From an uncultured Kiritimatiellota bacterium (lineage in GTDB: Bacteria > Verrucomicrobiota > Kiritimatiellia > RFP12 > DVOR01), in contig CALXSH010000003.1 of assembly GCA_944391065.1 (NCBI GenBank), positions 7,871 through 71,870 on the forward strand: 64,000 bases of DNA, written 5' to 3'. Shown piece after piece: positions 1,400 to 61,930 of the stretch; positions within the stretch are counted from its first letter, which is position 1, and every line of letters begins with the position of its first letter. Both the position numbers and the translations under genes were made by a program. The notes under the pieces are model-generated. The model saw only the letters and a program-made list of their open reading frames with translations, was not told the origin of the DNA and did not search any database.

Positions 1400-2059
1400 A
1401 TGGGAACCGGAATGTTTGCCGCAATGACCCTGACCGAGGCGTGGACCGTCGGCGGGTGGCTGATGTGGGTGCTGGCCGCGATGAGCGTCATCGGGGTGGC
1501 GCTGTGCCTCTATTTTCTGGCGACGCTGCGCCTGGGTGCGGTAGTGCCGCCGCGTTTGCGCCGTGACCTGCCGAAGTATCTGGTGGCCGACGATCTGAGC
1601 GAGGCCCGCCGCCTCTGCGAGGATGCGCCGTCGCCGCTGAGCGCGGTGATCTTGGCGACGCTGGATGCGGTGCGCAATGCGCCGCGCGCCGATGCCGGGC
1701 TGATCGCGAAGGTGGCCGAGAGCGAGGGCGGGCGTCAGGCGGGCCGTTTGCGCGGCCAGATTCAGTGGCTGCTTGATATCGCGACCATCGCGCCGCTGGT
1801 CGGGCTGCTGGGGACGGTGATCGGCATGCTGCAGGCTTTCGGTGCTGTGGCGGCGGATGTGGCGGCGGCTAAGCCGACGCTGCTGGCCGAGGGTGTCTCT
1901 AAGGCCATTGTGACGACGATCTTCGGCCTGCTGGTGGCTATCCCGGCGATGACGTTTTATGCATGGTTCCGCAGGCGTGCGGCGCGGCTGATTGCGGCGC
2001 TGGAAGGGGCCTGCGCGGAGCTGGTGGCGGTGCTGGGCAGCAAGCATATTCGGGACTGA
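1400..2059 (+). CDS. MotA/TolQ/ExbB family proton-channel protein
   Basis: 219 aa with three TM segments and the conserved C-terminal TolQ/ExbB region LLGTVIGMLQAFG...AIVTTIFGLLVAIPAMTFYAWF. Confidence 0.85.
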   Translation: MGTGMFAAMTLTEAWTVGGWLMWVLAAMSVIGVALCLYFLATLRLGAVVPPRLRRDLPKYLVADDLSEARRLCEDAPSPLSAVILATLDAVRNAPRADAGLIAKVAESEGGRQAGRLRGQIQWLLDIATIAPLVGLLGTVIGMLQAFGAVAADVAAAKPTLLAEGVSKAIVTTIFGLLVAIPAMTFYAWFRRRAARLIAALEGACAELVAVLGSKHIRD

Positions 2060-2063
2060 GGGT

Positions 2064-2540
2064 ATGAACTTCAGCAAGCATGGCGAGGAGCTGCCGCAGT
2101 TTCAGATGACGGCGATGATGGACGTCGTCTTTCTGTTGCTCTGCTTCTTCATTACCTCGACGGTCTTCTCCCAGTGGGAGTATGAGGTCGATCTGACGCT
2201 GCCGACGGCGAAGTCCGCGCAGACTCCGGTCAGGATGCCGGGGGAGATTATCCTGAATATTGCGGCCGACGGGACGGTGACGGTCAACCAGCGGGTGTTC
2301 GCGGGCGAGGATCTGGACCGTCTGCTGCGGCAGGTGGCAGGGTATCTGCCCGGTCAGCCGATCATTATCCGCGCGGACCGCGGCACGCCTTATGAGCACT
2401 TCATGAAGGTGGCCGATGCCTGCCGCTTGGCGGGCATCTCCAATCTGTCGCTGGCGACGGCCGGTGAGTCAGAGAATGCCCCTGAGGCGTCTTCCGTGCT
2501 GCCGCCGCCTCCGGCTGCGGAGCTTCGGGGAGGCTTCTGA
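2064..2540 (+). CDS. ExbD/TolR family biopolymer transport protein
   Basis: ATG at 2064, in frame with ORF 1992-2540. Single N-terminal TM (MMDVVFLLLCFFI) followed by an ExbD-like periplasmic domain (GEIILNIAADGTVTVNQRVF...IIIRADRGTPYEHFMKVADACRLAGI). Confidence 0.8.
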   Translation: MNFSKHGEELPQFQMTAMMDVVFLLLCFFITSTVFSQWEYEVDLTLPTAKSAQTPVRMPGEIILNIAADGTVTVNQRVFAGEDLDRLLRQVAGYLPGQPIIIRADRGTPYEHFMKVADACRLAGISNLSLATAGESENAPEASSVLPPPPAAELRGGF

Positions 2541-2542
2541 GC

Positions 2543-2845
2543 ATGACGGCGTGGCTTTTTGAGGCGCTGATGCTGCTGGCTTTCGGCTGCAGCTGGCCTG
2601 CCTCCATCGCCAAATCACTCCGGACGCGGTTCGTGCGGGGGAAGTCGCCGCTTTTTATGGTGATCGTCATCCTGGGGTACTGCTGCGGCATCCTTCACAA
2701 GCTCATCAATCCGGCGGCGCCCGACGCGCCGTTGCTGGCGCGCCATGTGCTGTGGCTCTATGTGGCTGATCTGCTGCTGGTGGCGACGGATCTGACGCTT
2801 TACTTCCTGTTCCGCCGGAACGCGGAGCCGCGGGGGGCGCGCTGA
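2543..2845 (+). CDS. Small hypothetical membrane protein (2-3 TM)
   Basis: 100 aa hydrophobic ORF, tightly packed between ExbD and the next gene (stop overlaps next start at 2845). High GC3. Confidence 0.4.
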   Translation: MTAWLFEALMLLAFGCSWPASIAKSLRTRFVRGKSPLFMVIVILGYCCGILHKLINPAAPDAPLLARHVLWLYVADLLLVATDLTLYFLFRRNAEPRGAR

Positions 2846-3753
2846 TGCTGCGGACGGTCCTGCTGGTGGCGGCGTTTGCGACGGGCTGGTTCTGCCCGTC
2901 GCTTGCCTTATTGAAGCCGCTGATGCCGTGGTGCCTGGGGTACATGCTGACGGTGGTCTTCATGCGGACGGAATTTTCCCGCGCCTCCTTCTCGCCCCGT
3001 CAGGCGCTGGTCATTGCGGTCAATATCGCGATGGCGGTGGCGGTGTGGGGCGGAATGCTGCTGTGCGGGGTGCCGGAACGCTTTGCCCAGGCGGCCTTTT
3101 TCACGGCAATCACGCCGACGGCGAGCGCGGCGCCGGTGATTGTCTCGCTGCTGGGCGGCAGCATCGGGTTTGCGTCTTTCGGCTTTGTGCTGAGCGCGCT
3201 GGCGGTCAGCGCGGCGCTGCCGCTGCTGGTGCCGGTGGTGCTGCATCAGTCGGCCTGGGGAATGATGCCGCTGATTCTGATGCGCGTGGGGTGGGTTGTC
3301 TTTCTGCCGATGCTTCTCGGGGGACTGCTGCGGCGCCTTCTCGGCGAACGGGCCGCGCGCATCGGCAAACGCCTGACGGGCTCGACGCTCTATACCTGGA
3401 TTGCGCTCGTGGCCATCATTGCGGCGTCGGCCTCGGATTTTCTGCGGACGCACGCGGCGGAGTATCCGGTCGGCGACGTGCTTTGGGTGCTGCTGATCGA
3501 CTTTGTGCTGTGCGTGGTCTGCTTTGCCGTCGGGGCCCTGCTCGGTTATCCCGGCTACATCCGGGAATGCTCGCAGCTGCTGGGGCAGAAAAACACGTCG
3601 TACACGACCTATCTGGCCTTTGCCAGCGGCAATCCTTTCGCCGCGCTGGGGCCGGCCTTCTATGTCTTCTTTCACAATACGTGGAACGGTCTGCAGCTGA
3701 TTTTCCATAAGGAGCAGGACGATGTGCCCAAGAAAACCGAAGCGCACCGTTGA
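2845..3753 (+). CDS. Polytopic membrane transporter-like protein (about 9-10 TM), family uncertain
   Basis: 302 aa, very hydrophobic, multiple TM helices with GxxxG-like motifs. No soluble domain. Confidence 0.5.
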   Translation: MLRTVLLVAAFATGWFCPSLALLKPLMPWCLGYMLTVVFMRTEFSRASFSPRQALVIAVNIAMAVAVWGGMLLCGVPERFAQAAFFTAITPTASAAPVIVSLLGGSIGFASFGFVLSALAVSAALPLLVPVVLHQSAWGMMPLILMRVGWVVFLPMLLGGLLRRLLGERAARIGKRLTGSTLYTWIALVAIIAASASDFLRTHAAEYPVGDVLWVLLIDFVLCVVCFAVGALLGYPGYIRECSQLLGQKNTSYTTYLAFASGNPFAALGPAFYVFFHNTWNGLQLIFHKEQDDVPKKTEAHR

Positions 3754-4422: not shown

Positions 4423-5493
4423 TCAGAAGGCGTCCCGGACCGTCAGGGCGTCCCTGTCGGAGGCATAGGCGGTCGCGTCGCGCAGGGTGACGCGGCCGCT
4501 GCGGACGAGGGCGCGCAGGGAGGCATTCATGGTCGTCATGCCGTATTCCGCGCCGGTTTCGATGAGGGAGGGGATCTGGCGTTCCTTGCGGTCGCGGATG
4601 AGGGCCCGGACGGCATTGGTCGAAACCATGATTTCTGCGCAGAGCGAACGCCCGCCTCCGTCGGACCAGGGGATCAGCTGCTGGGTAATGACGACTTTGA
4701 GATTGGCCGCGAGGCGCTCGCGGGTCTGATCCTGCTCCATGGCCTCGAAGGCGCTGATGATGCGGGTGACCGACTCGACGGCGCCGGAGGTGTGGAGCGT
4801 GGCGAAGGTCAGGTGACCGGTCTCGGCCAGGGTGAGGGCCGCGTCCATGGTTTCGCGGTCGCGCATTTCGCCGAGGAGAACGATGTCGGGATCCTCGCGC
4901 AGGGCAGCCCGGAGGGCGACGTGAAAGCCGCGGGTGTCGTGGCCGACCTCGCGCTGGGAGACGAGGCAGGAGGCGCTCTCGTGGACATATTCGACGGGGT
5001 CTTCCACGGTGAGGATGTGTTCGTGCCGGGTCCTGTTGATCCGGTGGAGGATGCTGGCGAGGGTCGTCGTCTTGCCGGAGCCGGTGGCGCCGGTGACCAG
5101 GACGAGCCCCTGGCGCATCTCTGCGATGCTTTCGAGAAAGGGGACGGGAAGGCCCAGTTCGCCGAAGGGGATGAAGCGGTCGGGCAGCAGGCGGATGGCC
5201 CAGGCGATCCGGTCGCGCTTGCGGAAGACGTTGATGCGGATGCGCCGTCCGCCGAGTACCGTGGCGGCTCCGTCGAATTCGCATTCGGCCGCGAAGCGGT
5301 CGAAGTTGCCTCTGCCGATGAGCATGGCGGTGAGACCGGCGAAGGATTCGGCGCGGATGGAGTCGGGCGGGGGCACTTCGCGGAGGAAGCCGTTGATCCT
5401 CAGCCTGGGGGATTCGCCTTCGCACCAGTGCAGGTCCGAGGCGCCGGCGTCGGCCATCAGGCGGAAGAGGGGTTCGAGGCGTGCGTCGGCCAT
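4423..5493 (-). CDS. pilT: PilT-family type IV pilus retraction (twitching motility) ATPase
   Basis: Start MADARL at 5493 (complement of cat at 5491-5493), AAGGAG RBS upstream. Walker A GATGSGKTTTLASIL, Asp box, His box ATLHTSGAVESVTRI, and the PilT-type C-terminus (MTTMNASLRALV). About 356 aa, typical PilT size. Confidence 0.85.
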   Translation of the reverse strand: MADARLEPLFRLMADAGASDLHWCEGESPRLRINGFLREVPPPDSIRAESFAGLTAMLIGRGNFDRFAAECEFDGAATVLGGRRIRINVFRKRDRIAWAIRLLPDRFIPFGELGLPVPFLESIAEMRQGLVLVTGATGSGKTTTLASILHRINRTRHEHILTVEDPVEYVHESASCLVSQREVGHDTRGFHVALRAALREDPDIVLLGEMRDRETMDAALTLAETGHLTFATLHTSGAVESVTRIISAFEAMEQDQTRERLAANLKVVITQQLIPWSDGGGRSLCAEIMVSTNAVRALIRDRKERQIPSLIETGAEYGMTTMNASLRALVRSGRVTLRDATAYASDRDALTVRDAF

Positions 5494-5494
5494 G

Positions 5495-6127
5495 TCAGTG
5501 CTCCTTTTGCGCAATCAGTATTTCAAGATCGGCCAGCACGGCGTCGCAGGCCTCCGCACCGCGTCGGTCGCCCCGGGCAAGAAAGGCTTCCCGCGCCCCG
5601 GCGAAGGCGGCGCGTGCCTCCTCGGGGTGTCCGAGGGCCAGGGCGCATTTGCCCAGGTTGAAGGATGCCGCGGGACGCCAGGGGCCCGCGGCATCTCCGC
5701 TGTAGGCCAGGGCCTGCCGCAGGGCCTCCCGGGCGCGCAGAGGGTCGTCCAGCCGCAGCCGGAGTTCGCCGGCCAGCGCATGGCGGCGGGCCTCCCAGGC
5801 GGAACCGACGGAGGAGGGCAGGGGGGTAAGGAGGGCGAGCGCTCCGGCGGTGTTGCCTTCGGCCCGGAGGGCCTGTGCGGCCCCCAGAAGGGCGCGCGTG
5901 CGCAGCGCAGGGTCTTCGCTTTCCGCGGTCAGCGCCATAAAGGCCGCGAGTGCTTCGCGCGTGCGGCGGGCCCTGAGGAGGGCCCCGGCATTCTCCAGGG
6001 CCTGCTCCTTCGCGGCAGGGGCGAGCAGGGGAGCGGCGTCGGCGGCGGGATCCGCGGCGGGGGGCGTGCGGCAGCCGCCCAGGAGAAGCGCCGGCAGGAG
6101 GAGAAGAGCGTGCGTGAGGCGCTTCAT
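5495..6127 (-). CDS. TPR-repeat lipoprotein, candidate secretin pilotin (PilF/PilW/Tgl-like)
   Basis: Signal peptide with lipobox LLGGC. Ala-rich TPR-like helical repeats. Start overlaps the secretin stop (ATGA at 6124-6127). Sits directly downstream of the secretin, the usual pilotin position. Confidence 0.55.
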   Translation of the reverse strand: MKRLTHALLLLPALLLGGCRTPPAADPAADAAPLLAPAAKEQALENAGALLRARRTREALAAFMALTAESEDPALRTRALLGAAQALRAEGNTAGALALLTPLPSSVGSAWEARRHALAGELRLRLDDPLRAREALRQALAYSGDAAGPWRPAASFNLGKCALALGHPEEARAAFAGAREAFLARGDRRGAEACDAVLADLEILIAQKEH

Positions 6128-7941
6128 TCCGCCTCCACGGGGGTTTCCAGAGGCGCGGTCGCCGCATCGATCCGGGAGAGGGCCTGCCGCTCGGCCGGAT
6201 CCAGGGCGCCGAGGGCTTCCCCGGCCAGGTCGGAGCCTTCGGCGAGTCCGGTGAGGAAGGAGCGGCTCATGCGCTCGGCGTCGCCGGGGGAGAGAATCAC
6301 GTAGGGGCGCACCAGGACGATGAGCTCCTCGACGGTGACGGCGCGGTTCTGCCGCTCGAAAAGCAGGGGGCCGACCCAGGGGATGTCCGCCAGCCAGGGC
6401 ACCCGGGCGACGTTTTCGGTTTCGCGGCGGCTGACAAGGCCGCCGAGGGCGAGTGTCTCGCCGGAGCGGGCGACGACGGTGGAGACGATGGACTGCTTGA
6501 TGACGTCGGTGGTCTGGTATTCGATGCGCTCTGCGGAGGGCCCGTAGCTCATGCTCTTGGGGGAGCCCTCCTCGGCATTTTCCTGGAGAAGGCGGAGGGT
6601 GACGGAGCCGTCGGCATGGATTTTGGGGGTGATGACGAGGGTGGTGCCGATGTCGGTGCGCTGGATGTCGGCGGTGGTCGAGGTCGTGGGGGTGGCCGTT
6701 TCGCTGCCGGTGAAGGTGGTGGAGGTCTCCACGCTCAGGATGATGGAGGTCTCCTTGCCGACAAAGATGCGGGAGGCCTCATAGTCCGAGACCATGAGGT
6801 TGGGCGTGGCGAGGCGGCGGACCTTGCCCTTCTCATCGAGGTATTTGAGCCGGAGGCTGAGATGGTCGCTGATGTACTGGAGAGCCGCTGCGTCGGCGCT
6901 GAAGGAGCCCAGCGTGTCCAGCGCCGACGTGAGGCCGCCGACGGGGCCGCCGTCGTAGCCGCCGACAAACCCGCCGGAGACCGGGTTGCCCCGTCCGGTG
7001 GAGAAGAGGATATCGAGCTGACGGTCCTTTTCGTCCGTGATGTCCAGCGCGAGCACCTTGACCTCCAGCAGGACCTGCGGTTTGGGGCGGTCGAGCTCGG
7101 CGATGACTTCGCGGACCTGGCGGAGGGTGTCGCGGTCGGAGGAGCGCAGGAGGATGGCATTGGCGTCGCGCGCCACCGCGACGAAGACGACGCTGGGGCT
7201 GGCGGCCCTGGGGACGCCGTCGGTGTCGGCGGTGACAATGGCGGCGTTGTCGCGGTTGAGGCGGTCCATGTCGCGGTAGTAGTCGGTTACGTTGTCCAGT
7301 CCGGTAAGGTTGCTGCTGCGGCGCGAGCGGCTGCGGGATGAGGAGCCGCCGCCGGAGGCCGCGTCATCCTCCACCATCGTGGCGCGGTCGGAGAGCTGAT
7401 CCATCCGGTCCAGGGCACGGTCGATGTCGCCGGCGGGGTCGCCGTCCTCCTCTTCGGGAGGATTGTAGACGACCATGTCGTTGAAGACCTGCTCCAGGCT
7501 GGCGGCGATGTCCTCGGCCCGGGGGTAGACCACGGTGACGGTCTCGACAAACTTATGGCCGTCGCGTGCGGCGTTGCCGACGTATTCTTCCAGGGTTTCC
7601 ACGGTGATGAGGCCGCTGTCGGGGTCCTCGCGGAACCAGAGACCGTGGGCGCGGCAGAGGGCCTTGAGGGCGTCCATGCAGGCGATGCCGCGCAGATAGG
7701 CCCGGACGCTCACGCGCTTGGCGGCGTCGGTCACGACAATCTGGCGGCCCCAGGCCTCGGAGAGGATCCACATGGCGTATTCCGCGGAGGCATCGCGGAC
7801 CATGAGAGAGGTCAGGCGGGACTCCGCGGCGGGCGCCTCCGAAGCGGGCGCCTCCGAAGCGGGGGCCGCCGGGGCGGAGGAGGCGACGGCGGCGAGCAGC
7901 GGGCAGAAGAGGGAGAGAAGAAGCGGAAGGGAGCGGTTCAT
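6124..7941 (-). CDS. Secretin (PilQ/GspD family outer-membrane channel)
   Basis: 605 aa. Signal peptide, then APASEAPASEAPAAE repeat. N-domains. C-terminal secretin domain with the hallmark motif ARVPWLADIPWVGPLF and beta-rich region LLEVKVLALDITDEKDRQLDI. Confidence 0.85.
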   Translation of the reverse strand: MNRSLPLLLSLFCPLLAAVASSAPAAPASEAPASEAPAAESRLTSLMVRDASAEYAMWILSEAWGRQIVVTDAAKRVSVRAYLRGIACMDALKALCRAHGLWFREDPDSGLITVETLEEYVGNAARDGHKFVETVTVVYPRAEDIAASLEQVFNDMVVYNPPEEEDGDPAGDIDRALDRMDQLSDRATMVEDDAASGGGSSSRSRSRRSSNLTGLDNVTDYYRDMDRLNRDNAAIVTADTDGVPRAASPSVVFVAVARDANAILLRSSDRDTLRQVREVIAELDRPKPQVLLEVKVLALDITDEKDRQLDILFSTGRGNPVSGGFVGGYDGGPVGGLTSALDTLGSFSADAAALQYISDHLSLRLKYLDEKGKVRRLATPNLMVSDYEASRIFVGKETSIILSVETSTTFTGSETATPTTSTTADIQRTDIGTTLVITPKIHADGSVTLRLLQENAEEGSPKSMSYGPSAERIEYQTTDVIKQSIVSTVVARSGETLALGGLVSRRETENVARVPWLADIPWVGPLLFERQNRAVTVEELIVLVRPYVILSPGDAERMSRSFLTGLAEGSDLAGEALGALDPAERQALSRIDAATAPLETPVEAE

Positions 7942-7960
7942 CGGGCGGGTCCTCGGCAGT

Positions 7961-8458
7961 TTACCAACGCAGAATCAGGGTTTCGTCCGGGCGGTTCTTG
8001 GCGTGGTAGATTTCCAGGTAGGTGGGCGCAATGGTTTTGACGTAAAGATAGAAGGTGTAGCGGTCTTCGGAGGCGGCCGCGGTCCGTGAGGCGGCCTGTT
8101 TCCGGCCGCCGTCTCGGAGGACGCGGACCTGGTCGCCCTCGCGGACGAGGGTCGGCTCTTCCTCCTCGCTCATGCGGATCAGGGCGGAGGGGGCGGTGCC
8201 GTCGCCCTCCGGGACGGCGATGGCCAGGATGCGGAACCCCGCGGGGATGTCTCCGAGGGCGGTCCGCACCAGGCCGGTACCGGGCATCTCGGGGTCGCCG
8301 GTGTCGCCCGTGCGGGGGGTGAAGGGGTCGACCAGGCCCGTCTCGGGGTTGCCGTCGGCATCGCGGAGGGGCTGCGGCGGCCCGGAGAGGGGAAGTGCGG
8401 CGCCCAGCGGGGCCAGCGGGCCGAGCGCAAGCATCAGGGCAAGAGAGAAGCGGTTCAT
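7961..8458 (-). CDS. Hypothetical secreted protein at the PilP/GspC position of the pilus operon
   Basis: 165 aa. Signal peptide MNRFSLALMLALGPLAPLGAA, Pro/Gly-rich linker, beta-rich C-terminal domain. Encoded between the PilC-like and secretin genes. Confidence 0.4.
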   Translation of the reverse strand: MNRFSLALMLALGPLAPLGAALPLSGPPQPLRDADGNPETGLVDPFTPRTGDTGDPEMPGTGLVRTALGDIPAGFRILAIAVPEGDGTAPSALIRMSEEEEPTLVREGDQVRVLRDGGRKQAASRTAAASEDRYTFYLYVKTIAPTYLEIYHAKNRPDETLILRW

Positions 8459-8474
8459 GCGGATTCCTTTCGGG

Positions 8475-9704
8475 TTATGCGGCGGCGGCGTTCATAGCCG
8501 CCATGCCCATGAAGAAGGCGATGTAGACGTAGGCCACCATGCCGCCGACGACGATGACCAGGGCGGGCTCGACCAGTTTGCCGAGCAGGTCCAGACGGCG
8601 GGCGAGCTCCTGCGCATAGTGTTCGCCTACGTAGCGCAGGCCCTCGGCCATGCTGCCGGAGCTCTCGCCGACGCGGACAAGCGCCCGCGTGAGGGGGGCG
8701 AGGCGCCCCAGCGCGGTCGCGCCGAAGCTCTCGGAGAGAGGCTTCCCGGCGAGAACCCCTTCGCGGGCGAGCGCGACCTGGCTCCGGTAAAAGGCGTTGG
8801 TCAGCGTGCCGCGGATGAGGGCAAGGGATTCGACGACGGAGATGCCGCTGTCGAGGAGAATGGAGAGGGTGTTGCCGAAGAGCGCATTGCCGGCGAAGCG
8901 GCCGACCTTGCCGAAGAGCGGGAGCGCCAGCAGGATCCGGTCCGCGGCGACATTGATTCCCGGCAGCTTCCGGAGGACGGCGACGGCCGCCGCGGCGGCA
9001 AGGGGTCCGAGGATCAGCCAGTACCCGTAGGCCTGAACCCAGGCGCTGACATCCAGCAGCGAACGGGTGACGGGGGGCAGGCGCGAGGGATCGCCCATGA
9101 CCGAGACGATTTGGGGGATGGCCACGGTGCTGACGTAGTAGCCCACGCCCAGCCCCATGAGCACGACGATGGCCGGATAGGTCAGGGCCCGGACGGTTTC
9201 GCTGCGCAGGCGGCGGCGCTGCTCCATCAGACTCACGGCGTAGCCGAACATCCGGGGGAGTGCGCCGTTGGCCTCGCCGACGCCGATCAGCCCGAGATAG
9301 AGCCCGCCGACCCACGGCATGGCCGTACGCATGGCCTTGGTGAGCGAGGCGCCGCCGCGGACCGCCTGGGCGGTTTCGGCAAGCGCCTGGGCGAGGTAGC
9401 CCTTGGAGAGGGAGGCTACGGTCTCGAGGGACTCGACGGCCGCGACGTCGCCGCGCAGCAGGACGGCCATCTGCGTGAAGGCCTGCTCCACAGCGGCCCG
9501 GCCCACAAACCAGGGCGTGACGGCCCGCTCCAGCGCCGAACGCCGGCGCATCCGGCGTCCCGGCGCGTGCGCCGGACGCACGGCCATGGGCAGGATGCCC
9601 TGCGTGCGGAGCCAGGCGCGGAGGGCGGCTTCGTCCTCGGCTTCGTGCGTGCCGGAGACTCTGCGCCCGGCGGAGACGCCGGTGTATCGGAACCACGCAC
9701 TCAT
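8475..9704 (-). CDS. GspF/PilC family inner-membrane platform protein
   Basis: 409 aa. Duplicated GspF domains with three TM segments. Start ATG overlaps the upstream ATPase stop (tcat at 9701-9704). Confidence 0.85.
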   Translation of the reverse strand: MSAWFRYTGVSAGRRVSGTHEAEDEAALRAWLRTQGILPMAVRPAHAPGRRMRRRSALERAVTPWFVGRAAVEQAFTQMAVLLRGDVAAVESLETVASLSKGYLAQALAETAQAVRGGASLTKAMRTAMPWVGGLYLGLIGVGEANGALPRMFGYAVSLMEQRRRLRSETVRALTYPAIVVLMGLGVGYYVSTVAIPQIVSVMGDPSRLPPVTRSLLDVSAWVQAYGYWLILGPLAAAAAVAVLRKLPGINVAADRILLALPLFGKVGRFAGNALFGNTLSILLDSGISVVESLALIRGTLTNAFYRSQVALAREGVLAGKPLSESFGATALGRLAPLTRALVRVGESSGSMAEGLRYVGEHYAQELARRLDLLGKLVEPALVIVVGGMVAYVYIAFFMGMAAMNAAAA

Positions 9705-11176
9705 AGCATCAGCAGCCCGCTGTCAATCACATCGGCGATTTCCGCGAGCGTCGTCTCGCCCGCCAGGACGCGCCGGAGTCCGTCGCCGCGCAGGGTCCAT
9801 TCGGCGGGCCGGCTTCGGAGGAGGGCGTCGAGGCGGTCGCTTCCGCGGGTGTCCATCAGGGCCGCGCGCACCGCGTCGTCCACCGCGAGCATTTCGTAGA
9901 CGGCGGTCCGTCCGGCATATCCGGTCATGCCGCAGTAGGCGCAGCCTTTTGCGCGCGGCACCTGCGGCGGGGCCTTGGGGTCCCATCCGCAGGCGCGGCA
10001 CTCCTCGGGGGTGGCGGGCTCCCAGGCCATGCAGGCCGGGCAGGGACGGCGGACGAGGCGCTGGGCCATGGCCAGCCGGAGGGTGGCGGCCACGAGATAG
10101 GGCGGCACGCCCAGGTCGGTGAGGCGGGTGAGGATGGCCGGGGCGCTGTTGGTATGCAGGGTGGTCAGCACCAGATGCCCGGTAAGGGCCGAACGCAGGG
10201 CCGTGGTGGCCGTCTCGCCGTCGCGCACCTCGCCGACCATCACCACGTCGGGGTCATGGCGGAGCACGCTGCGCAGGGCCTTGGCGAAGCTGACGCGCTC
10301 CTGCCGGCTGTCCACGCGGATCTGCGTGACGCCGTCGACGGGTTTCTCCACGGGGTCTTCGATGCTGACCAGGTGCCGTGTGTCGGGGGCGGCCAGGGCG
10401 CGCAGCGCGGCATAGAGCGTGGTCGTCTTGCCGCTGCCGGTGGGGCCGGAGATGATGATGACGCCGTTGGGCGCGCGGAGGGCGCGGCGGAAGGTGCGGT
10501 CCTGCTCCGGGTTCATGCCCAGATCCTCCAGACGCTCCAGCTGCGGCGCGGAGCCGGAACGGCTCAGGATGCGCAGCGTGACGTGTTCGCCGTGAATGGT
10601 CGGGACGGTGGCGACGCGGAGCGCCACGCTGCTGCCGTCAAGCACGGTGTCGATGTTGCCGTCCTGCGGGGCGCGCTTCTCGGCAATGTCGAGCTTGGCC
10701 AGGACCTTGATGTAGGAGACAAACTCCGCGGCGGCCTCGGGCGGCTCGCGCCGGTCGGTCTCCAGGCGGCCGTCGATGCGCAGGCGGATGCGCGATCCCC
10801 CGGCGTCGGGGGAGACATGGATGTCCGAGGCGTTCCGCGCGAGGGCCCGCCGCAGCATATAGGCGAAGAGCTCCTCGGGGCGGTCCAGGGTGCCGTTGAG
10901 CGCGGCATCGGGATAGTGGGTCCGCAGGGCCGCCGGAAGGGCGGCGGGATCCTCCGGCTCCACCAGGCGCACGGCGCGCTCCCGGAGCAACCGCTCCAGA
11001 CGGTCCCGGACGGCGGGATCGGTACGGTCCGCGACGCAGACCGTCAGGGTGCCGTCGTCTCCGACGGAGAGCGGGAGCGCCCCCAGAGAGCGCGCGCTCC
11101 GCGCGGGCAGAAGGTCCAGCACCGCCTGCGGCGGGCGGATGCGGTTCAGATCGACGGTCGGAAGTGCGTCACTCAT
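9701..11176 (-). CDS. GspE/PilB family type II/IV secretion assembly ATPase
   Basis: 491 aa. N-terminal GspE_N-like region, Walker A GPTGSGKTTTLYAAL, Asp box, His box TTLHTNSAPAILTRL, C-terminal tetracysteine CPAC...CAYCGMTG zinc motif typical of GspE/PilB. Confidence 0.9.
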   Translation of the reverse strand: MSDALPTVDLNRIRPPQAVLDLLPARSARSLGALPLSVGDDGTLTVCVADRTDPAVRDRLERLLRERAVRLVEPEDPAALPAALRTHYPDAALNGTLDRPEELFAYMLRRALARNASDIHVSPDAGGSRIRLRIDGRLETDRREPPEAAAEFVSYIKVLAKLDIAEKRAPQDGNIDTVLDGSSVALRVATVPTIHGEHVTLRILSRSGSAPQLERLEDLGMNPEQDRTFRRALRAPNGVIIISGPTGSGKTTTLYAALRALAAPDTRHLVSIEDPVEKPVDGVTQIRVDSRQERVSFAKALRSVLRHDPDVVMVGEVRDGETATTALRSALTGHLVLTTLHTNSAPAILTRLTDLGVPPYLVAATLRLAMAQRLVRRPCPACMAWEPATPEECRACGWDPKAPPQVPRAKGCAYCGMTGYAGRTAVYEMLAVDDAVRAALMDTRGSDRLDALLRSRPAEWTLRGDGLRRVLAGETTLAEIADVIDSGLLML

Positions 11177-11997
11177 CGCGTGTTCACCTGCAGGGTAAAG
11201 GTCATGCGCAGGGCGCTCTCACGGACGTCCGGGTCGCGCGAGACGGAAAATCCGCAGAGGTGGTAGGCCGGTTTGCGGCAGGACTCCTCCACCAGGAAGC
11301 GGAACATGTCGCGGAAGTCTCCCTCCACCGTGAAGACGATCGATTCGGTCGCGAAAGGCGGCTTTGCCGGGGCCGCCGCACGGGGTGCGGGCGCGGCTTT
11401 GGCGGCGGCCTGGCGCTGCCGGGCGTATTCCGCCTCGGCCGCCTTCATCTGCGCGATTTTCTTCTGGGCATCGCGGAGAAACTCGGCCTGCATCGATTTG
11501 TCGAGGCCGGCCGCGACCTGCCGGATGCGGCGCTCGTACTCCGCCGCGGAGGGGGGCGCGGCGTCTGCCTTCGGTCCGGCGGAGCCGGACCTGCCGGAGC
11601 GGGCGGCGGCCGGCTGCGCGGCGGCGACGGAGACGGTGCTGGCGACGATGCGCAGGCGGTGCCGGGTCAGGGTGCGGTCCAGCGCGTGCTTGGTCTCCAG
11701 AACGGCCTCCGGTCCCGTCGGGATCGGGGCGAAGCCGGCCTCTGCGACCTCCTTCCGCAGATCCTCCAGGCGCGTCTTCAGGGCGGCCGTCCGGCGGTCG
11801 AGAGAGGCGGGAAGGTCGGGGCTGAGCATCCGGAGTTCCTCCAGATGGGCAGCCTGCCGGGCGCGCTCAGGGGCGTATTCGCGCTCCTGCCTGCGGAGTT
11901 CGCCCCGCCACAGAAAGGCCGATACCGTGCCGCAGACGGCCAGGGAGGCCGCGAGCCAGTGCCAGCTGTTAGTTTTTGCAAGAAATCCGAGATTCAT
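11173..11997 (-). CDS. GspM/PilO-like bitopic membrane protein (single N-terminal TM, coiled-coil, Ala/Pro-rich linker, C-terminal domain)
   Basis: Start MNLGFLAKTN at 11997 (ATG overlaps the upstream stop, atga at 11994-11997). TM WLAASLAVCGTVSAFLW. Position between the GspL-like gene and the ATPase gene. This is the C-terminal part of a longer 703-aa ORF in a frame that is otherwise an antisense shadow. Confidence 0.5.
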   Translation of the reverse strand: MNLGFLAKTNSWHWLAASLAVCGTVSAFLWRGELRRQEREYAPERARQAAHLEELRMLSPDLPASLDRRTAALKTRLEDLRKEVAEAGFAPIPTGPEAVLETKHALDRTLTRHRLRIVASTVSVAAAQPAAARSGRSGSAGPKADAAPPSAAEYERRIRQVAAGLDKSMQAEFLRDAQKKIAQMKAAEAEYARQRQAAAKAAPAPRAAAPAKPPFATESIVFTVEGDFRDMFRFLVEESCRKPAYHLCGFSVSRDPDVRESALRMTFTLQVNTR

Positions 11998-13340
11998 GGC
12001 TGCTCTCCCAGACGAGTGTAATCCAGCGTGTAGACAAAGCGCAGCTGGGGCATGCCTTCGGCGTCGGCGGCCTTTGTGACGGAGGTCTCGGCCACGCGCA
12101 GCCCCTCCTTGGCCGCGAAGTCCAGCAGGGCGGCCTCCAGTCGGACGCCCTCTTCGGAATCGGCAAAGGTGCCCTTGGCCGTCACCCGGCCGCCCGTATC
12201 CTCCAGCGACTCCAGCAGCATCGTGGGGCCGGCGTGGCGGCAGAAGAAATAGGCGGCGTGGACATAGGCCGCCAGCGGCCGGCGCCGGTCCGCCAGAAAG
12301 CGCTGCAGCGACTCCTCTTCGGCGAGGGCTTTCCGGGCGGCCTCCTCCCGGGCGCGTGCGCTCCGGACGGCCTTCTCCAGCGGCAGATACTGCGCCGCGT
12401 CGGCCCGGTAACGCCCGGTGTCGGCGCGCATGCGGGCATCCGCCGCCCATCCGCAGAGGAAGGGGGCCGCCAGCAGGATGACGCACGGCACCGCGATCCA
12501 GGCGTGCGAAAAGCGCTTGCGCGGCTCGTAGGGATTTTCGAGCGGCACGCGGCTTCCGGCACGGTTGGGGCGGGCCTCCGCCGTCAGACGGACGGCCTCG
12601 GCCAGGAGCGGTTCGCAGGGCGTGGTCAGGACGGATTCGTAGCCGGCGCGCAGCGTCAGCCCCTCGGCCAATACCAGCGCCCCGGCATCGTTGCCCAGGG
12701 CAATCATGCGCACGGGCGAGGCCGGCGCGATGCCCCGGACCGCGCGGGTGAAGCGCGCGAGCCATCCGGCGGCGTCGGCCGCGGCATGGCGGAGACCGCC
12801 CGAGAGCACCACGGGGAGCTCCGGCTCCGGAGGGACGGCCAGCGTCTGGCTCTGGCTGAGCAGAATCAGCGCCTTCCCGCCCGGGCGGCCGAGGCTCCAG
12901 GCGGCCAGGCAGGCCAGCTCCAGCGAGGCGACGCCGCCGAAGCGGAGCCCGGCCGCGGCGGTGCGCTCCGCCAGTGCCAGCACGGTCTCCCCGGCAAAGA
13001 CGCTTACCAGCGTGGCACTCCCGCGGCCGCCGCCGAGCGAAATGCCCATGCAGAGCAGCGAGGCCGGATCGGCGCCCGACAGGTCGGCGGCCTCCTGGGC
13101 CATCAGCGCCTGACGTTCGCTCCTGCGCAGGCCGGCGGGAAGCGCCGCATCCATGCGGCGCAGATCGCCCGAAATCAGATAACGGACGGAACGGCGCGAG
13201 ACGGCCAGATTGGCCAGCCAATCCGGCGGCGGTGTGTCGGGCGTTCCCGGCCGGGGCTCTTCGGGTGCGTCGGGGCGGATCCATCGGGTGCCGTCATAGA
13301 GCAGGACGGCGGGCTTCAATATGCGTTTCGGTCTGGCCAT
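11994..13340 (-). CDS. GspL-like / PilM-PilN fusion-like protein (cytoplasmic actin-like domain, one TM, periplasmic coiled-coil domain)
   Basis: 448 aa. N-terminal region with a PilM/GspL-like beta-strand-rich fold (LLYDGTRWIRP...ATLVSVFAGETVLALAE). TM AWIAVPCVILLAAPFLCGWAA at about residue 280. C-terminal coiled-coil/periplasmic region. Directly downstream of the pilin genes. Confidence 0.55.
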   Translation of the reverse strand: MARPKRILKPAVLLYDGTRWIRPDAPEEPRPGTPDTPPPDWLANLAVSRRSVRYLISGDLRRMDAALPAGLRRSERQALMAQEAADLSGADPASLLCMGISLGGGRGSATLVSVFAGETVLALAERTAAAGLRFGGVASLELACLAAWSLGRPGGKALILLSQSQTLAVPPEPELPVVLSGGLRHAAADAAGWLARFTRAVRGIAPASPVRMIALGNDAGALVLAEGLTLRAGYESVLTTPCEPLLAEAVRLTAEARPNRAGSRVPLENPYEPRKRFSHAWIAVPCVILLAAPFLCGWAADARMRADTGRYRADAAQYLPLEKAVRSARAREEAARKALAEEESLQRFLADRRRPLAAYVHAAYFFCRHAGPTMLLESLEDTGGRVTAKGTFADSEEGVRLEAALLDFAAKEGLRVAETSVTKAADAEGMPQLRFVYTLDYTRLGEQP

Positions 13341-13344
13341 GGCT

Positions 13345-14370
13345 TCAGGGAGTCGGATAGGCGGTGTGGGGATGCAGGGTGAGAGAAAGGACGTTGACGC
13401 CCGGGCGCAGCAGCAGATACTGCGGCGGCGCGGCCAACGCCCCGCCGGCCGCCGTGGAGGCGCAGACGTAGACGGCGCGCAGGCCGTGGGTGAGCCCCTC
13501 GGCTGCCGTCAGCGAGTCGGCGTTGGCCGCCGCGTAATACCGGCAGGCCAGCGCGACAGTCGGGTCGCCGGTCTCGGGGACGGTAAATTCCGGCTGCCAG
13601 ACGAACACATGAAGCTTGGTGACGGCCGCGCCGTCGGAGGTTTTGGCCCGGACGGCCAGCGAGACACCGGGCGCCCCGACGGGAAAGGTCAGGTCGCGGT
13701 CCTGCCAGGCCACGGCGGCGCCGGCGGCATCCTCCGTGCGGTCACGGCCGCGGCTCACAAGCGCCGTCAGCAATCCGGAGGCCGCGTCGGTCTCCGCCTC
13801 CCAGCGGCCGCCGAAGCCGTCGCGCAGGATCGGCACCGCGACGTTGGGATTGTCCGAAGCCGCCTCCGTGTCCAAGGCGCTGCCTTCGCAGTAAGGTCCC
13901 CGCCAGCCGGCCCCCAGGGAAACCTTGGGGAAGCGGTCGGCGAAGTCCTCGAAGGACGTCAGTTCGGCGGCGTCATAAGCCGGCACCGTGGCGGAGGAGG
14001 CAAGGTCCGGCGGAAGATCCGAGGTGCGCACGGCATACGCCGGCAGCGCGGCCACCGCCGCGGACGCAACGGGTCGGGGATTGCCCAGCGCGTCCTCCTC
14101 GGGCGACTTCCTGAGGAAGGCATTGCCGAAAAGCAGGCAGAGCTCCTCTGCGGAGGCCGGTGCACGGCCGAGGTCGGAGACAAAGCTCAGCCCATCGGCG
14201 CGCCGCAGGGCCTCGGCCATGGCTTCGGCGTCGCGGGCGGTGCGTTCGGCGCGGGCGCGTTCGCGGAGGGCCGAGGCTTGCGTGCCGACGGCCACGGCCA
14301 GGCCGGCCAGAATGGCCAGAACCACCAAGAGCTCCACCAGGGTCATGCCCCGACGCGACGCTTCACGCAT
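13345..14370 (-). CDS. Prepilin-type N-terminal cleavage/methylation domain protein (large pilin/pseudopilin, about 341 aa)
   Basis: Start MREASRRG at 14370 with GGAGG RBS. Class III signal motif RRG|MTLVELLVVLAILAGLAVA (Gly-1, Glu+5). Confidence 0.7.
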   Translation of the reverse strand: MREASRRGMTLVELLVVLAILAGLAVAVGTQASALRERARAERTARDAEAMAEALRRADGLSFVSDLGRAPASAEELCLLFGNAFLRKSPEEDALGNPRPVASAAVAALPAYAVRTSDLPPDLASSATVPAYDAAELTSFEDFADRFPKVSLGAGWRGPYCEGSALDTEAASDNPNVAVPILRDGFGGRWEAETDAASGLLTALVSRGRDRTEDAAGAAVAWQDRDLTFPVGAPGVSLAVRAKTSDGAAVTKLHVFVWQPEFTVPETGDPTVALACRYYAAANADSLTAAEGLTHGLRAVYVCASTAAGGALAAPPQYLLLRPGVNVLSLTLHPHTAYPTP

Positions 14371-14371
14371 C

Positions 14372-15235
14372 TTATTGCCTCCAGAGATCAAGATTGAGCA
14401 GCTCCACGACATAGAGCCCGGTTGACGGATCGTAGGTCCGCTCCAGGGCCCCCGTGGTCAGGTTCAGCGGATACCCGTACCGCGCGTCGCCGGAATTCCG
14501 CTCGCCCATGCGGCGGTTGCCGGTCAGCAGGCCCAGTCCGGTGCGCTCGTCGCCGCTGCCCTCGACCGTGAATGTCTGCCACTTCGCGGGCTCCTCGGCG
14601 CAGACCAGAAAGAGACGGCGGTAGACCGGCTCGGCGAGGTCGTCCGCATCGTTGCAGTGTTCGTAGTAGACCACGCGGTAAAGGCCTTCGTGGCGCGTAG
14701 CCGGCTGCGGCAGCACGACGCCGGACGACTCGCCGTAAAAATCGCCCGTCTGCGCCGCGACCGTGCCGGCCGAAAGGTAGGGCCCCTGCCATCCTTCGCC
14801 CGTCACCGGGTCGAAGCCCCCGAAGACGACGAAGTCGGCGTCCTCCAGGCGCGTGTCGTCCTCCGAGACGGAGGGTTGCAGGAGGGGCCAGAGACCGTAG
14901 CGCTCGTAGAACTCGACCATGCCGTAAGTGCGGTCGCCCGTGGTGGGCGTGTCGCCACTTCTGAAGGTGCCCAAGAAGTCGCCCGAGGGGAAAATCTCGG
15001 AATCTTTGGGCGCGTGGAGGCCGGCGAGCAGACGGGGCTGGCAGTCGGCGTAAAACCGCGCAAAGGCATCGCGGATGCCGCCCATCTCCCGGACGGTCAC
15101 CTGCCGCCGGGCCCGCGTCACCAGATCATGCCCGTAGGTGACGGCCACGCCCGCGCCGACCACCGCGACGATGGCGACGACGACGAGCAGTTCAATCAGG
15201 GTAAATCCGGCGCGTCCGGAGGAGGGGAAGATCAT
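14372..15235 (-). CDS. Prepilin-type N-terminal cleavage/methylation domain protein (about 287 aa; alternative start at 15265)
   Basis: Class III signal SSGRAG|FTLIELLVVVAIVAVVGAGVAVTY. Stop TAA at 14372-14374 abuts the next pilin start. The longer start MNPYQTRASAM at 15265 would abut the terminator of the preceding gene. Confidence 0.7.
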   Translation of the reverse strand: MIFPSSGRAGFTLIELLVVVAIVAVVGAGVAVTYGHDLVTRARRQVTVREMGGIRDAFARFYADCQPRLLAGLHAPKDSEIFPSGDFLGTFRSGDTPTTGDRTYGMVEFYERYGLWPLLQPSVSEDDTRLEDADFVVFGGFDPVTGEGWQGPYLSAGTVAAQTGDFYGESSGVVLPQPATRHEGLYRVVYYEHCNDADDLAEPVYRRLFLVCAEEPAKWQTFTVEGSGDERTGLGLLTGNRRMGERNSGDARYGYPLNLTTGALERTYDPSTGLYVVELLNLDLWRQ

Positions 15236-15271
15236 GGCTGAGGCCCTTGTCTGATACGGATTCAAAAAAGG

Positions 15272-15312
15272 CCCCGGCGGGAATTGGAGCGGCCCCGCCG
15301 GGGCCGGGACTC
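15272..15312 (-). terminator. Rho-independent terminator after the first (largest) pilin gene
   Basis: On the minus strand: GGCCCCGGCGGG-loop-CCCGCCGGGGCC followed by TTTTTT. Lies between the pilin gene ending at 15320 and the next pilin gene. Confidence 0.6.
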
Positions 15313-15319
15313 ATCTTAT

Positions 15320-16522
15320 TCAGTCCTTCAGTTTGGATTCGTCACTGATGTAGTTGTCGCGGAGCGCGGCGGCAGAGTAGCCCTGCGGGGAGAGGACGCA
15401 GGCCACGGAGGCGCCGTCGCCGGTGTTGGTCATGCTGTTGGTCGCCTGCATCGGGACCTTGATGACCGCCAGGTAGCGGCTGTAGACCGAGGCTTCCTGA
15501 TCCTGACGCTTGCCGTAGGCCGGATTGTCGAGGCGCACGGCACGGCCGTCATTGATCGAGGCAAAGCGCCCCAGCCCCATCACCACCAGGTAGTATTCCT
15601 TGCCGGCGGCAAGCTCTCTGTCGTAATCCTTTGTCGGGTCAGCCACCTGCTCGGGGGTGAGGCCGCAGTTGGAGATGATCTCGGCGGTCAGGTTCATCGG
15701 CATCGTGACGGATCCCATCGGCCCCATGGACATGCTGGCACCGCCGCCGGGATAGATGAAGCAGAGTCTGGCGAGAATATCGGCTTCGCTAATGGCCTCT
15801 GCCGATTCAATGGCTGCGTTGAGCTGGTCAAGCGAGGTGAATGTTGCGTTCAGGCCACTGCCGGTATCGTTTACAGTCTGGGTTCCAGCCGTTGCGGCGC
15901 TTCCGCCTTCCTTCCAGTCCTCACGCAATTTGTCGGCGTTTTCTATCAGGTAATTGGCCTGATCTTTGGTGTAAGGCGTGGCGTCGGAGTCGAGCGTGCA
16001 GAGTGTTTTGGAGGTGTCGACGCCGGCACCCATCATGTTGGTGGCGAAGGTCGAGTCGTTGGCGCTTGAGACGGGTTCCTCTTCCGTTCCGACGCGGTGT
16101 TTGTAAACGCGGGTGAGGCCGGACGAGGCCAGAACGTCAATAACCTGTTTGGGGGCAGCCTGTGCCATGGCGGTGTATCCCATGGGGCCGCTCAGACCCA
16201 TGCCGGAGCGAGACATCGGCGTCACGTTGCCCAGCGTGGTGCCGTCAACCTCGTCGGGCATCTGGTGGTACATGTCGCCATTTTCGTCGATCAGGGAGTC
16301 GAGGCCGTCGGGGAGTTTGCCGTCATTGATGAAACTCCAGTTGGCAATGGCTTTCTGGATGGTGCCGATGTCCGACATTTCCATGGCGGTCTTGGCCTTG
16401 TCGTCCATGTTGCGGTAGGTGACGGCGACGCCGGCGCCGATGACGGCGATGATGGCGACGACGACGAGGAGTTCGATGAGGGTGAAGCCCGCTTTGCGGG
16501 GGTTCTTTTTGCCAATATGCAT
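15320..16522 (-). CDS. Prepilin-type N-terminal cleavage/methylation domain protein, candidate major subunit (about 400 aa)
   Basis: Start MHIGKKNPRKAG|FTLIELLVVVAIIAVIGAGVAVTY at 16522. First gene of the cluster and followed by its own terminator, the classic major-pilin arrangement. Ser/Thr/Gly/Asp-rich C-terminal domain. Confidence 0.7.
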   Translation of the reverse strand: MHIGKKNPRKAGFTLIELLVVVAIIAVIGAGVAVTYRNMDDKAKTAMEMSDIGTIQKAIANWSFINDGKLPDGLDSLIDENGDMYHQMPDEVDGTTLGNVTPMSRSGMGLSGPMGYTAMAQAAPKQVIDVLASSGLTRVYKHRVGTEEEPVSSANDSTFATNMMGAGVDTSKTLCTLDSDATPYTKDQANYLIENADKLREDWKEGGSAATAGTQTVNDTGSGLNATFTSLDQLNAAIESAEAISEADILARLCFIYPGGGASMSMGPMGSVTMPMNLTAEIISNCGLTPEQVADPTKDYDRELAAGKEYYLVVMGLGRFASINDGRAVRLDNPAYGKRQDQEASVYSRYLAVIKVPMQATNSMTNTGDGASVACVLSPQGYSAAALRDNYISDESKLKD

Positions 16523-16596: not shown

Positions 16597-16890
16597 TCAG
16601 GTTCGGTCCCTTTCCCTCAAAGGGCACCGTGATTCGTGGCAGGAACCGGCCGCGTCGGCGGCCGTGTTCCGAAAATCGACGACGAAGCGCCATTCGCGTC
16701 CGCAGCGGACGATGAATTCCTTCTGACGCCGGGTCAGGATGCGCATGTCGAGTTCGAGCCGGCCCCATCCGTCGTGCGTCAGGAGTTCGTCGAGGAGCGC
16801 CGAGAGGCGGTGCCGGAGGCGGCGCACGGCCGGGTCGCGGAGGATGTCGCCGCCGTCGGCAGGGGAAGGATCGGGCAGGCCTTCGGACAT
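16597..16890 (-). CDS. Small hypothetical protein (97 aa)
   Basis: High-GC3 ORF filling the gap between the flavodoxin gene (ends 16900) and the pilin gene. No recognisable motif. Confidence 0.35.
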   Translation of the reverse strand: MSEGLPDPSPADGGDILRDPAVRRLRHRLSALLDELLTHDGWGRLELDMRILTRRQKEFIVRCGREWRFVVDFRNTAADAAGSCHESRCPLRERDRT

Positions 16891-47804: not shown

Positions 47805-47909
47805 AGGCCCATTTTATCACAGTTGAAAATGAGGTATAATCGGCCGCCTGATGGGAGCGGTGCCCGCCCGAAGCGGGAGCCACGGCCGAAAGGCTTTATT
47901 GAGGTACGT

Positions 47910-59765: not shown

Positions 59766-60005
59766 CGGGGATCCTTTCAAAGGTTCATCAAGTATAGCAT
59801 AATCCGCCCCCTTACGGGCACTTCCCTCCTCGCCGCCTGGCCGCGCAGCGTCCATCGTGACGCGTCATCCATCCCGACGCACAGCCTGCCGGCAGGGGTA
59901 GGACCTCGCAGACCGGCAACCCCTCCCCGCGCTCCTGGCCCTCGGCGCGTTTCCTCCCGGACATCAGTGCCATCCGACCGCGACACCGCCCAGAATCGAC
60001 ATCTG

Positions 60006-60086
60006 ACCCTATAGGGTAACCTCACACCACCCTATAGGGTGATACTGTATCACCCTATAGGGTCATCAGTCATCACCCTATAGGGT
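60006..60086. repeat. Array of four ACCCTATAGGGT palindromes at exact 23-bp phasing (spacers not conserved)
   Basis: Palindromes at 60006, 60029, 60052 and 60075 (copies 2-4 extend to the 14-bp CACCCTATAGGGTG/A). Lies between the gyrA upstream region and the DUF1796 gene, at the high-GC / low-GC boundary. Confidence 0.9.
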
Positions 60087-61900: not shown

Positions 61901-61930
61901 ACCTTCAACCACGCTCTTTGAGGACCAATA

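Follow-up and report, generated by a model that had tools for sequence, protein, structure and literature searches.

The 64,000-nucleotide stretch of contig CALXSH010000003.1 (assembly GCA_944391065.1, positions 7,871 to 71,870) from an uncultured Kiritimatiellota bacterium, here called the window, contains an operon of 11 co-oriented minus-strand genes (16522..4423). This operon probably encodes a complete diderm machine that belongs to the type IV filament (T4F/TFF) superfamily and represents a subtype confined to Lentisphaerota/Kiritimatiellota-like bacteria of the Planctomycetes–Verrucomicrobia–Chlamydiae (PVC) group; its most likely product is a surface-exposed retractile pilus. A retractile surface pilus is the best-supported reading because a conserved PilT retraction ATPase is combined with a first pilin gene that is flanked by a terminator-like hairpin and that shows allelic hypervariability. 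Such a fibre would likely be used for adhesion, motility or uptake in the gut habitat.

Nearly all work on type IV filaments has been done in Proteobacteria, Firmicutes and a small number of other groups, and Lentisphaerota and Kiritimatiellota are common gut and rumen bacteria. The kind of system described here is well known, and the operon is an uncharacterised variant of it, not a new kind of system. It is a compact, self-contained subtype in which three assembly proteins (L, M and X) and all pilin heads lie outside every curated family, and for this reason standard annotation calls the products "hypothetical" or "type II secretion system protein". Hidden Markov models (HMMs) built from our alignments A1, A3, A5, A6 and A8 would improve the annotation of these genomes.

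Gene content and conservation of the operon

A preliminary description of this DNA, made from the sequence alone, had proposed a co-oriented block of 11 genes coupled by ATGA overlaps. All 11 genes were found to be present with the sizes given there. Start and stop codons overlap as ATGA in four pairs of neighbouring genes (L/M, M/E, E/F and secretin/lipoprotein), and the remaining junctions are 1 to 50 nt, with the exception of an 84-nt gap 3′ of the first pilin gene, pil1. The GC content at third codon positions (GC3) is 0.80–0.89 across the operon, and therefore all 11 genes were read as coding. Two frames from a mechanical list of open reading frames (ORFs) were rejected: the Arg-rich ORF at 5523..6167 is a spurious frame, the true gene for a tetratricopeptide repeat (TPR) lipoprotein being 5495..6127, and the "703-aa" ORF at 11173..13284 is an out-of-frame extension of M. 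Both are wrong-frame artefacts caused by the high GC content, which is about 0.64–0.72 over most of the window and 0.55–0.59 in its final 4 kb.

Three of the genes encode prepilins, namely pil1 (16522..15320, 400 aa), pil2 (15235..14372, 287 aa) and pil3 (14370..13345, 341 aa). Each has a short basic leader ending in Gly at −1, followed by F or M at +1 and Glu at +5 (in pil1, MHIGKKNPRKAG and then FTLIE...), and each scores above the cut-offs of N_methyl (Pfam PF07963) and TIGR02532. The large sizes first reported for these proteins were right, the class III signal is clean in all three, and no other class III signal motif was found in the window. Past the N-terminal helix, neither single sequences nor profiles of the three pilins matched anything in Pfam, in NCBIfam or among PDB sequences, and the GspG, GspH, GspI and GspJ models matched the helix only, far under their cut-offs. 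There was no match in the operon to the FimU/PilV/W/X/E set or to PilY1, the pilins besides pil1 being only pil2 and pil3, which belong to lineage-specific families. These two are conserved minor-type prepilins throughout the family; both carry GWxGPY motifs (GWRGPYC in pil3), together with YGLWPL in pil2 and SRGRDRxxD in pil3, and at the distant loci L013–L016 the pil2 homologues lie directly upstream of the pil3 homologues.

The extension ATPase, platform, secretin and retraction ATPase were assigned by family profile matches, in agreement with the preliminary description, and were scored against curated equivalog models with cut-offs of 630 bits for GspE, 424 for GspF, 351 for GspD, 284 for PilQ (TIGR02515), 250 for MshL and 319 for PilT (TIGR01420). 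Protein E (11176..9701, 491 aa), of the GspE/PilB family, matched T2SSE at 3e-111 and, at its N terminus, the MshEN (N1E-type) domain at 6e-11, and has a Walker A and three CxxC motifs. It scored 415 bits on the GspE model and 384 bits on PilB, both under the cut-off; among PDB sequences, GspE (315 bits) and Thermus PilF (309 bits) were about equal. On inspection by eye, we take its MshEN-family domain to be one without the RLGxxLL...Q motif for cyclic di-GMP. The inner-membrane platform protein F (9704..8475, 409 aa; GspF/PilC family) matched T2SSF in two stretches (1.7e-42) and scored 224 bits on GspF versus 164 on PilC, again under the cut-off. The outer-membrane secretin (D; 7941..6124, 605 aa) matched Secretin (PF00263) at 1.4e-33 as well as Secretin_N, and scored 164 bits on GspD, 104 on PilQ and 101 on MshL, all under the cut-offs, with GspD (76 bits) above PilQ (50 bits) among PDB sequences; no AMIN domain was reported on it in the Pfam and NCBIfam profile searches.

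In the case of PilT (5493..4423, 356 aa), the curated cut-off was exceeded: TIGR01420 gave 393 bits, and the protein has a Walker A motif and the AIRNLIRE-like motif AVRALIRD. Between the secretin gene and pilT lies the gene for the TPR lipoprotein (6127..5495, 210 aa), which matched TPR families, has the lipobox LLGGC and adjoins the secretin gene.

Conservation was evaluated by scanning one genome per species for close relatives, which gave 12 loci (L001–L012), all in gut or rumen metagenome-assembled genomes labelled Lentisphaeraceae, "Kiritimatiellaeota" or Candidatus Spyradenecus (Lentisphaerota, PVC group). It was found that the order pil1-pil2-pil3-L-M-E-F-X-secretin-PilT is kept in all 12 as far as the contigs reach (L002 begins inside pil2, and L006 ends inside E), with flavodoxin and energy-coupling factor (ECF) transporter genes upstream in most of them. 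More distant loci, found on metagenomic contigs through distant homologues of L, have 42–66% GC and an E protein 41–52% identical, and share a core of a first pilin, pil2-like and pil3-like genes, L, M, E, F, X and secretin. Because the gene order recurs in 12 species and on distant metagenomic contigs, the operon is not a chance arrangement.

In 13 of the 14 related loci that could be read, pilT comes next after the secretin or TPR gene. A coincidental adjacency of PilT was rejected, as the linkage is kept across loci of 42–72% GC. The TPR lipoprotein behaved differently: besides the window, it was found in the closest relative, L001, and in L013 (27% identity, E 8e-13) only, and it is absent from L002–L005, L007–L012, L018 and L019. 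L013 has both a homologous TPR protein and PilT, whereas L019 has PilT and no TPR protein. The TPR lipoprotein gene and its pilotin-like location were as first described, but the idea of a core pilotin was given up, since the gene is without a counterpart in 11 of the 12 closest species; the protein is retained as an accessory candidate pilotin of the PilF/PilW/Tgl style. The conserved module is pil2, pil3, L, M, E, F, X and secretin, with PilT nearly always attached; the linkage of PilT is frequent and not universal in the operon family, the TPR protein is accessory, and the first pilin is replaceable across loci.

Placement and variability of the first pilin

Three features had been passed over in the preliminary description: pil1 is followed by a terminator-like hairpin, its alleles are hypervariable, and a 97-aa orphan gene lies upstream. 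The hairpin (15264..15308, minus strand) directly follows the pil1 stop codon and consists of a 13-bp GC stem followed by U6, with a fold energy of −40 kcal/mol (z −2.46). GC-rich hairpins are present at the same position in seven relatives (L001, L003, L004, L005, L006, L007 and L012). This stem-loop may be an intrinsic terminator, an attenuator or a stabiliser of the mRNA 3′ end, and such an arrangement would be expected of a first gene whose expression is abundant and whose read-through is attenuated.

In three of the related loci, the pil1–pil2 spacer is enlarged by tandem palindromic repeat units such as GACCACTATAGTGGTTGACCTCGGACCACTATAGGGTC (L004:7981-8175, L006:1884-2161 and L007:7899-8163). 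These units look like repetitive extragenic palindromic (REP) or miniature inverted-repeat transposable element (MITE) types of element inserted behind the candidate major pilin gene.

Sequence variability falls along the operon in the order pil1 >> pil3 ~ pil2 > L > M > E, D and PilT. Among relatives from the species-level population to which the window belongs, and with the window's copy as the reference, identities were 77–92% for pil1, 88–93% for pil3, 93–99.6% for L, 93.5–99.8% for E and 96.6–99.7% for PilT. Among three congeners (L004, L005 and L007) in which E and the secretin are 99% identical, the pil1 of L004 is 48% identical to those of L005 and L007, compared to 85–86% for pil2, 77–82% for pil3 and 92–94% for L. 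The identity of pil1 is decoupled from that of the rest of the operon, being 73% in L004, where L is 44%, and 47% in L001, where L is 60%. The GC content of pil1 is 60.6% (0.57 at first codon positions, GC1), in contrast to 66.9–74.1% in the other operon genes, which is consistent with a separately exchanged allele.

The variation in pil1 is concentrated at residues 120–250, and the N-terminal helix and residues 270–400 are conserved. This combination of a conserved α1 and a hypervariable middle resembles that of classical major pilins, and, judged from the sequences, it fits an exposed subunit that would be under strong diversifying selection with allele exchange. The pattern argues against a purely periplasmic pseudopilus. 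The replacement of pil1 alleles also points to a surface structure on which, in these uncultured gut bacteria, phages or hosts exert strong selection.

Structure prediction, which had been proposed for the three pilins, was run on pil1 and gave a confident model (pLDDT 84.1, pTM 0.75) with a fold unseen in the PDB: the head has no recognisable domain and no solved structural relative there. The pil1 homologues form 144 clusters, some of them carrying the NCBI name "type II secretion system protein", and range from 343 to 416 aa, except for two clusters of 564 and 572 aa that are mis-called fusions to the upstream flavodoxin gene. At the distant loci L013, L014 and L016, pil1 itself is not kept, and the first pilin is of another family, of 256–290 aa and ending in CPxCGSxNP. 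At L019:3744-5528, two tandem first pilins of about 268 aa stand in place of one, which suggests a duplication or a cassette-like arrangement of variable pilins.

Large pilins are already known as a category, the modular pilins, and those characterised so far are minor, tip-located subunits (PMC8179133). As in Streptococcus sanguinis PilB/PilC, CofB/TcpB, ComZ and GspK, the operon pilins join an N-terminal pilin module to a globular part far above the usual ~100–120 residues. In those systems the modular pilin stands beside a small major pilin (PMC8179133), whereas the operon has three pilins, all of them large, of which the first resembles a major subunit in its behaviour. If pil1 were instead a modular adhesin displayed at the tip, the fibre body would be a small pilin encoded elsewhere, and a fibre of giant pilins would be illusory. 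The modular-pilin precedent would favour this, as would the frequent separation of the T4aP (type IVa pilus) major pilin gene from the machinery genes (PMC6668835) and the replacement of pil1 by a different 256–290-aa first pilin in distant loci. However, the first position of pil1 together with the terminator-like hairpin is the classic major-pilin arrangement, and its conserved α1 and hypervariable middle are also those of a major pilin. Furthermore, the first pilin is large at every locus examined, with no small pilin found within 10 kb. We therefore regard a tip adhesin as somewhat unlikely and keep pil1 as the candidate major subunit; the operon suggests that pilins of 290–400 aa can serve as routine building blocks of a fibre.

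Assembly proteins and relation to known filament systems

Protein L (13340..11994, 448 aa) had no match in Pfam, NCBIfam or PDB sequences. A word-indexed search found 15 clusters of homologues, and an exhaustive HMM scan of 1.84 billion proteins with an L profile found 98 representatives, nearly all of 440–480 aa, among which there was no canonical GspL or PilM; a few distant members had weak PilN matches at the C terminus. The AlphaFold2 (AF2) model, made from a 16-sequence alignment, was confident (pLDDT 87.8) and contains a PilM-like actin-fold cytoplasmic domain, a transmembrane (TM) helix, a coiled coil and a ferredoxin-like periplasmic domain of the PilN/GspL type. Between the two domains are an invariant NPxxPRKRFSH motif, the single TM helix and a helix of about 90 residues. 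On the model, L would be a GspL-type protein, the fused equivalent of PilM and PilN, recognisable by fold only. The preliminary suggestion of a GspL-like PilM-PilN fusion is thus upheld by the predicted fold without any sequence match. The invariant motif in front of the TM helix may correspond to the N terminus of PilN that binds PilM.

Protein M (11997..11173, 274 aa) is bitopic: its N-terminal TM helix is followed by a coiled coil and a low-complexity linker, and it ends in a small conserved α/β domain. Searches of Pfam, NCBIfam and PDB sequences, as well as member-wise Pfam scans and profiles, gave no link to any family or PDB entry, and a profile–profile comparison with L for PilN/PilO-type paralogy (hhalign) was not significant, with a probability of 1.2%. 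Protein X (8458..7961, 165 aa), encoded at the PilP/GspC position between the platform and secretin genes, has a signal sequence and a conserved β-rich C-terminal domain. A profile search found 144 clusters of homologues, all without a Pfam family and named "hypothetical protein" in Kiritimatiellae genomes, and X had no match in Pfam, NCBIfam or the PDB, even with a 23-sequence profile against the PDB. From position and topology, M is expected to have the role of GspM/PilO, and X that of PilP or the homology region (HR) of GspC. The PilO/GspM-like and small periplasmic proteins first described are therefore borne out in topology and position and not in sequence, where neither has a link to any family. 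None of the middle genes was assigned to an unrelated family by the HMM searches, and the operon has no separate PilM, PilN or PilP, as first described: the PilM-like and PilN-like parts are fused in L, and no PilO or PilP match was obtained in Pfam, NCBIfam or member-wise Pfam scans.

The class III prepilins, GspE/PilB ATPase, GspF/PilC platform and secretin place the operon in the T4F/TFF superfamily. The mixture of features of type II secretion systems (T2SS) and T4aP that was noticed at the outset is confirmed, with E, F and D scoring best on the GspE, GspF and GspD models and PilT and the TPR lipoprotein being T4aP traits. Like the T4aP of Pseudomonas, Neisseria and Myxococcus, the operon has the PilT retraction ATPase above its cut-off, a TPR lipoprotein that may be akin to the PilF/PilW/Tgl pilotins, short-leader prepilins with F/M at +1 and E at +5, and, as in pilA groups, a first pilin gene that is followed by a terminator and evolves by allelic replacement. 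In contrast to T4aP, separate PilM, PilN, PilO and PilP are missing, PilM and PilN being fused with no recognisable PilO or PilP; the secretin is not of the PilQ type (104 versus 284 bits) and has no AMIN domain; there is no FimU-PilVWXE/PilY1 set; and one compact operon encodes pilins 2–3 times larger, whereas T4aP genes are scattered and their pilins smaller.

The T2SS of Proteobacteria (Gsp/Pul/Eps) resembles the operon in its single locus, in being the closest in sequence for E, F and the secretin, in the architecture of GspL, where, as predicted for L, one TM helix connects a PilM-like cytoplasmic domain with a ferredoxin-like domain in the periplasm, and in a bitopic partner, here M, at the GspM position with the expected topology. 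It differs from the operon, which has a conserved PilT, three large pilins in place of GspG and GspH–K, no recognisable GspC, GspN or GspS, L, M and X proteins missed by every T2SS sequence model, and a hypervariable first pilin that implies surface exposure. The operon does not qualify as a canonical T2SS in its E, F and D equivalog scores, its pilin set (GspG with GspH/I/J/K) or the loss of PilT.

Several observations weigh against a retractile surface pilus. E, F and D score higher on T2SS than on T4aP models, the fused form of L is the T2SS (GspL) solution and not that of T4aP, and M and X are without demonstrated homology to PilO/GspM or PilP/GspC. The GWxGPY-type motifs of pil2 and pil3 may be reminiscent of the GspG core; profiles of the two pilins matched in the N-terminal helix only. 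At the distant locus L018 (L018:7222-17337), the module of pilins, L, M, E, F, X and secretin is without PilT or the TPR protein, and a LOG-family gene follows the secretin gene. At 389 aa, mature pil1 would, as a major subunit, have about double the size of every major pilin characterised so far, and pil1 could be a tip or minor subunit with the true major pilin encoded elsewhere. As noted in the preliminary description, no prepilin peptidase is encoded locally, in that no Peptidase_A24 domain was found in any ORF scanned in the 64 kb; this enzyme is often encoded apart from other filament genes (PMC6668835). A literature search, within the library that could be searched, for pili or T2SSs of Lentisphaerae, Kiritimatiellae or Victivallis found nothing relevant and no experimental data on the operon family.

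The higher T2SS scores, the ranking of PDB sequences for the secretin and the fused architecture of L would all be explained by a divergent T2SS, in which the three pilins assemble into a short pseudopilus in the periplasm and so drive folded exoproteins (e.g., glycoside hydrolases of these saccharolytic gut bacteria) through the secretin, and PilT is an accessory disassembly factor or serves another pilus. The presence of the whole system in a single locus is typical of the T2SS (PMC6668835), the T2SS name on some pil1 homologues points the same way, and so does L018, which lacks PilT. However, E, F and D are all under the curated T2SS equivalog cut-offs, there are three pilins only as compared to GspG–K, with none at a Gsp pseudopilin cut-off, and GspC, GspN and GspS were not detected. 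PilT is in the operon in 13 of 14 loci, yet the T2SS is defined in part by PilT loss (PMC10191384; PMC6668835), and the TPR lipoprotein, as a candidate pilotin, would be of the T4aP type. A periplasmic pseudopilus is also not expected to show replacement of pil1 at 48% identity beside machinery that is 99% identical. We consider a divergent T2SS to be unlikely.

A retractile fibre could also be dual-purpose, or its main task could be DNA capture or cargo delivery, as in T4aP-dependent transformation and T4P-dependent secretion. Diderm competence pili have as their standard architecture a secretin and retraction powered by PilT (PMC6668835), and large pilin heads could bear ligand-binding or DNA-binding surfaces in the manner of ComZ-type modular pilins (PMC8179133). 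Against this, no comEA, comEC or dprA-type gene was found in or beside the operon in the window or the related loci, and no DNA-binding domain was detected in any of the three pilins. This leaves the presence of PilT as the sole specific support, and a competence or cargo pilus is very unlikely on these grounds.

MshI of the mannose-sensitive haemagglutinin (MSHA) pilus is a fused PilM/PilN-like protein. Further likenesses between the operon and the Vibrio Msh system are an ATPase with an N-terminal MshEN-family domain, a secretin without AMIN, and a TPR protein downstream of the secretin, at an MshN-like position. The operon falls short of an MSHA system in the MshL score (101 versus 250 bits), the absence of MshM, and an unrelated pilin set, and it encodes PilT, the loss of which is described for MSH (PMC10191384). 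The chlamydial TFF is without GspL/M equivalents and minor pilins (PMC6668835), and the operon has candidates for both. For the Bacteroidetes TFF (PMC6668835), no direct sequence relationship to the operon was established. In the terms of Denise et al. 2019, who counted 884 "generic" TFF systems (PMC6668835), the operon would be a "generic" or chimeric TFF, as for Chlamydiae and Bacteroidetes. Specific to it are the combination of traits, the three orphan assembly families, the uniformly large pilins and the fold of the first pilin, unseen in the PDB.

The retention of PilT beside T2SS-like parts bears on the proposed transition from T4aP to T2SS by PilT loss. Current views hold that the T2SS derived from T4aP with loss of PilT (PMC6668835, PMC10191384), and since the operon pairs a GspL-type protein and Gsp-like E, F and D with PilT, a transitional form is plausible. 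The operon might be a surviving T4aP/T2SS intermediate, having a T2SS-type core (fused GspL-like protein, GspD/E/F-like proteins and a single locus), a retained PilT, a ~42-kDa major subunit and a previously unseen head fold; we put this forward tentatively, as a rather unlikely reading. If it is true, the operon would have the largest major pilin known, an unusually thick and antigenically variable fibre, and a secretin able to pass that fibre.

Proposed working and genomic surroundings

For a retractile surface pilus, the following model is proposed. A prepilin peptidase encoded elsewhere would cleave the three prepilins after Gly-1. By analogy with GspE-GspL, E would use its N1E-type domain to dock on the cytoplasmic, PilM-like part of L, and would drive the F platform. 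L would pair with the bitopic M in the periplasm, and X would connect this inner-membrane complex to the secretin, the assembly of which may be aided by the TPR lipoprotein where it is present. The conserved pil2 and pil3 proteins would prime or cap the fibre, and pil1, transcribed at a higher level if the hairpin attenuates read-through, would form the body of the fibre or its exposed surface. PilT, encoded at the operon's 3′ end and translationally linked there, would then depolymerise the fibre.

No sigma-54 promoter was found upstream of pil1, and the sole sigma-70-like match was rejected as not credible, as it overlaps the pil1 start codon. The window contains no Rfam families or tRNAs. 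The orphan gene (16597..16890, minus strand, 97 aa) lies directly upstream of pil1, between the flavodoxin gene and pil1. It has a coding-type GC3 of 0.80 and a core motif HDGWGxLExDMRILxRxQKE..GxExRFVVDF, and matched no Pfam family. L001 (57% identity), L009, L010 and the distant L013 (35%, E 4e-14) each have a homologue in the corresponding place. The orphan may be a 12th member of the operon or a regulator.

Other features of the window were also observed. A 1154-aa ORF at 47208-50672 (+) and a 352-aa exported protein at 45356-46414 (−) have no Pfam match and are unrelated to the operon. At 1400-2540 (+) there are an ExbB/MotA-family gene and an ExbD gene, and 3′ of these, at 2543-3753, are two small to medium membrane proteins without a family assignment; the genes at 1400-3753 are possibly a TonB-type energy transduction cluster, located just past the convergent HhH-GPD gene that ends the pilus region. 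At 60000-64000, the GC content falls from about 0.65 to 0.55–0.58, and the GC3 of the genes is 0.61–0.69. This segment encodes a DUF1796 papain-like peptidase, a family-2 glycosyltransferase and a hexapeptide-repeat acyltransferase, and it is probably a horizontally acquired surface-polysaccharide locus.

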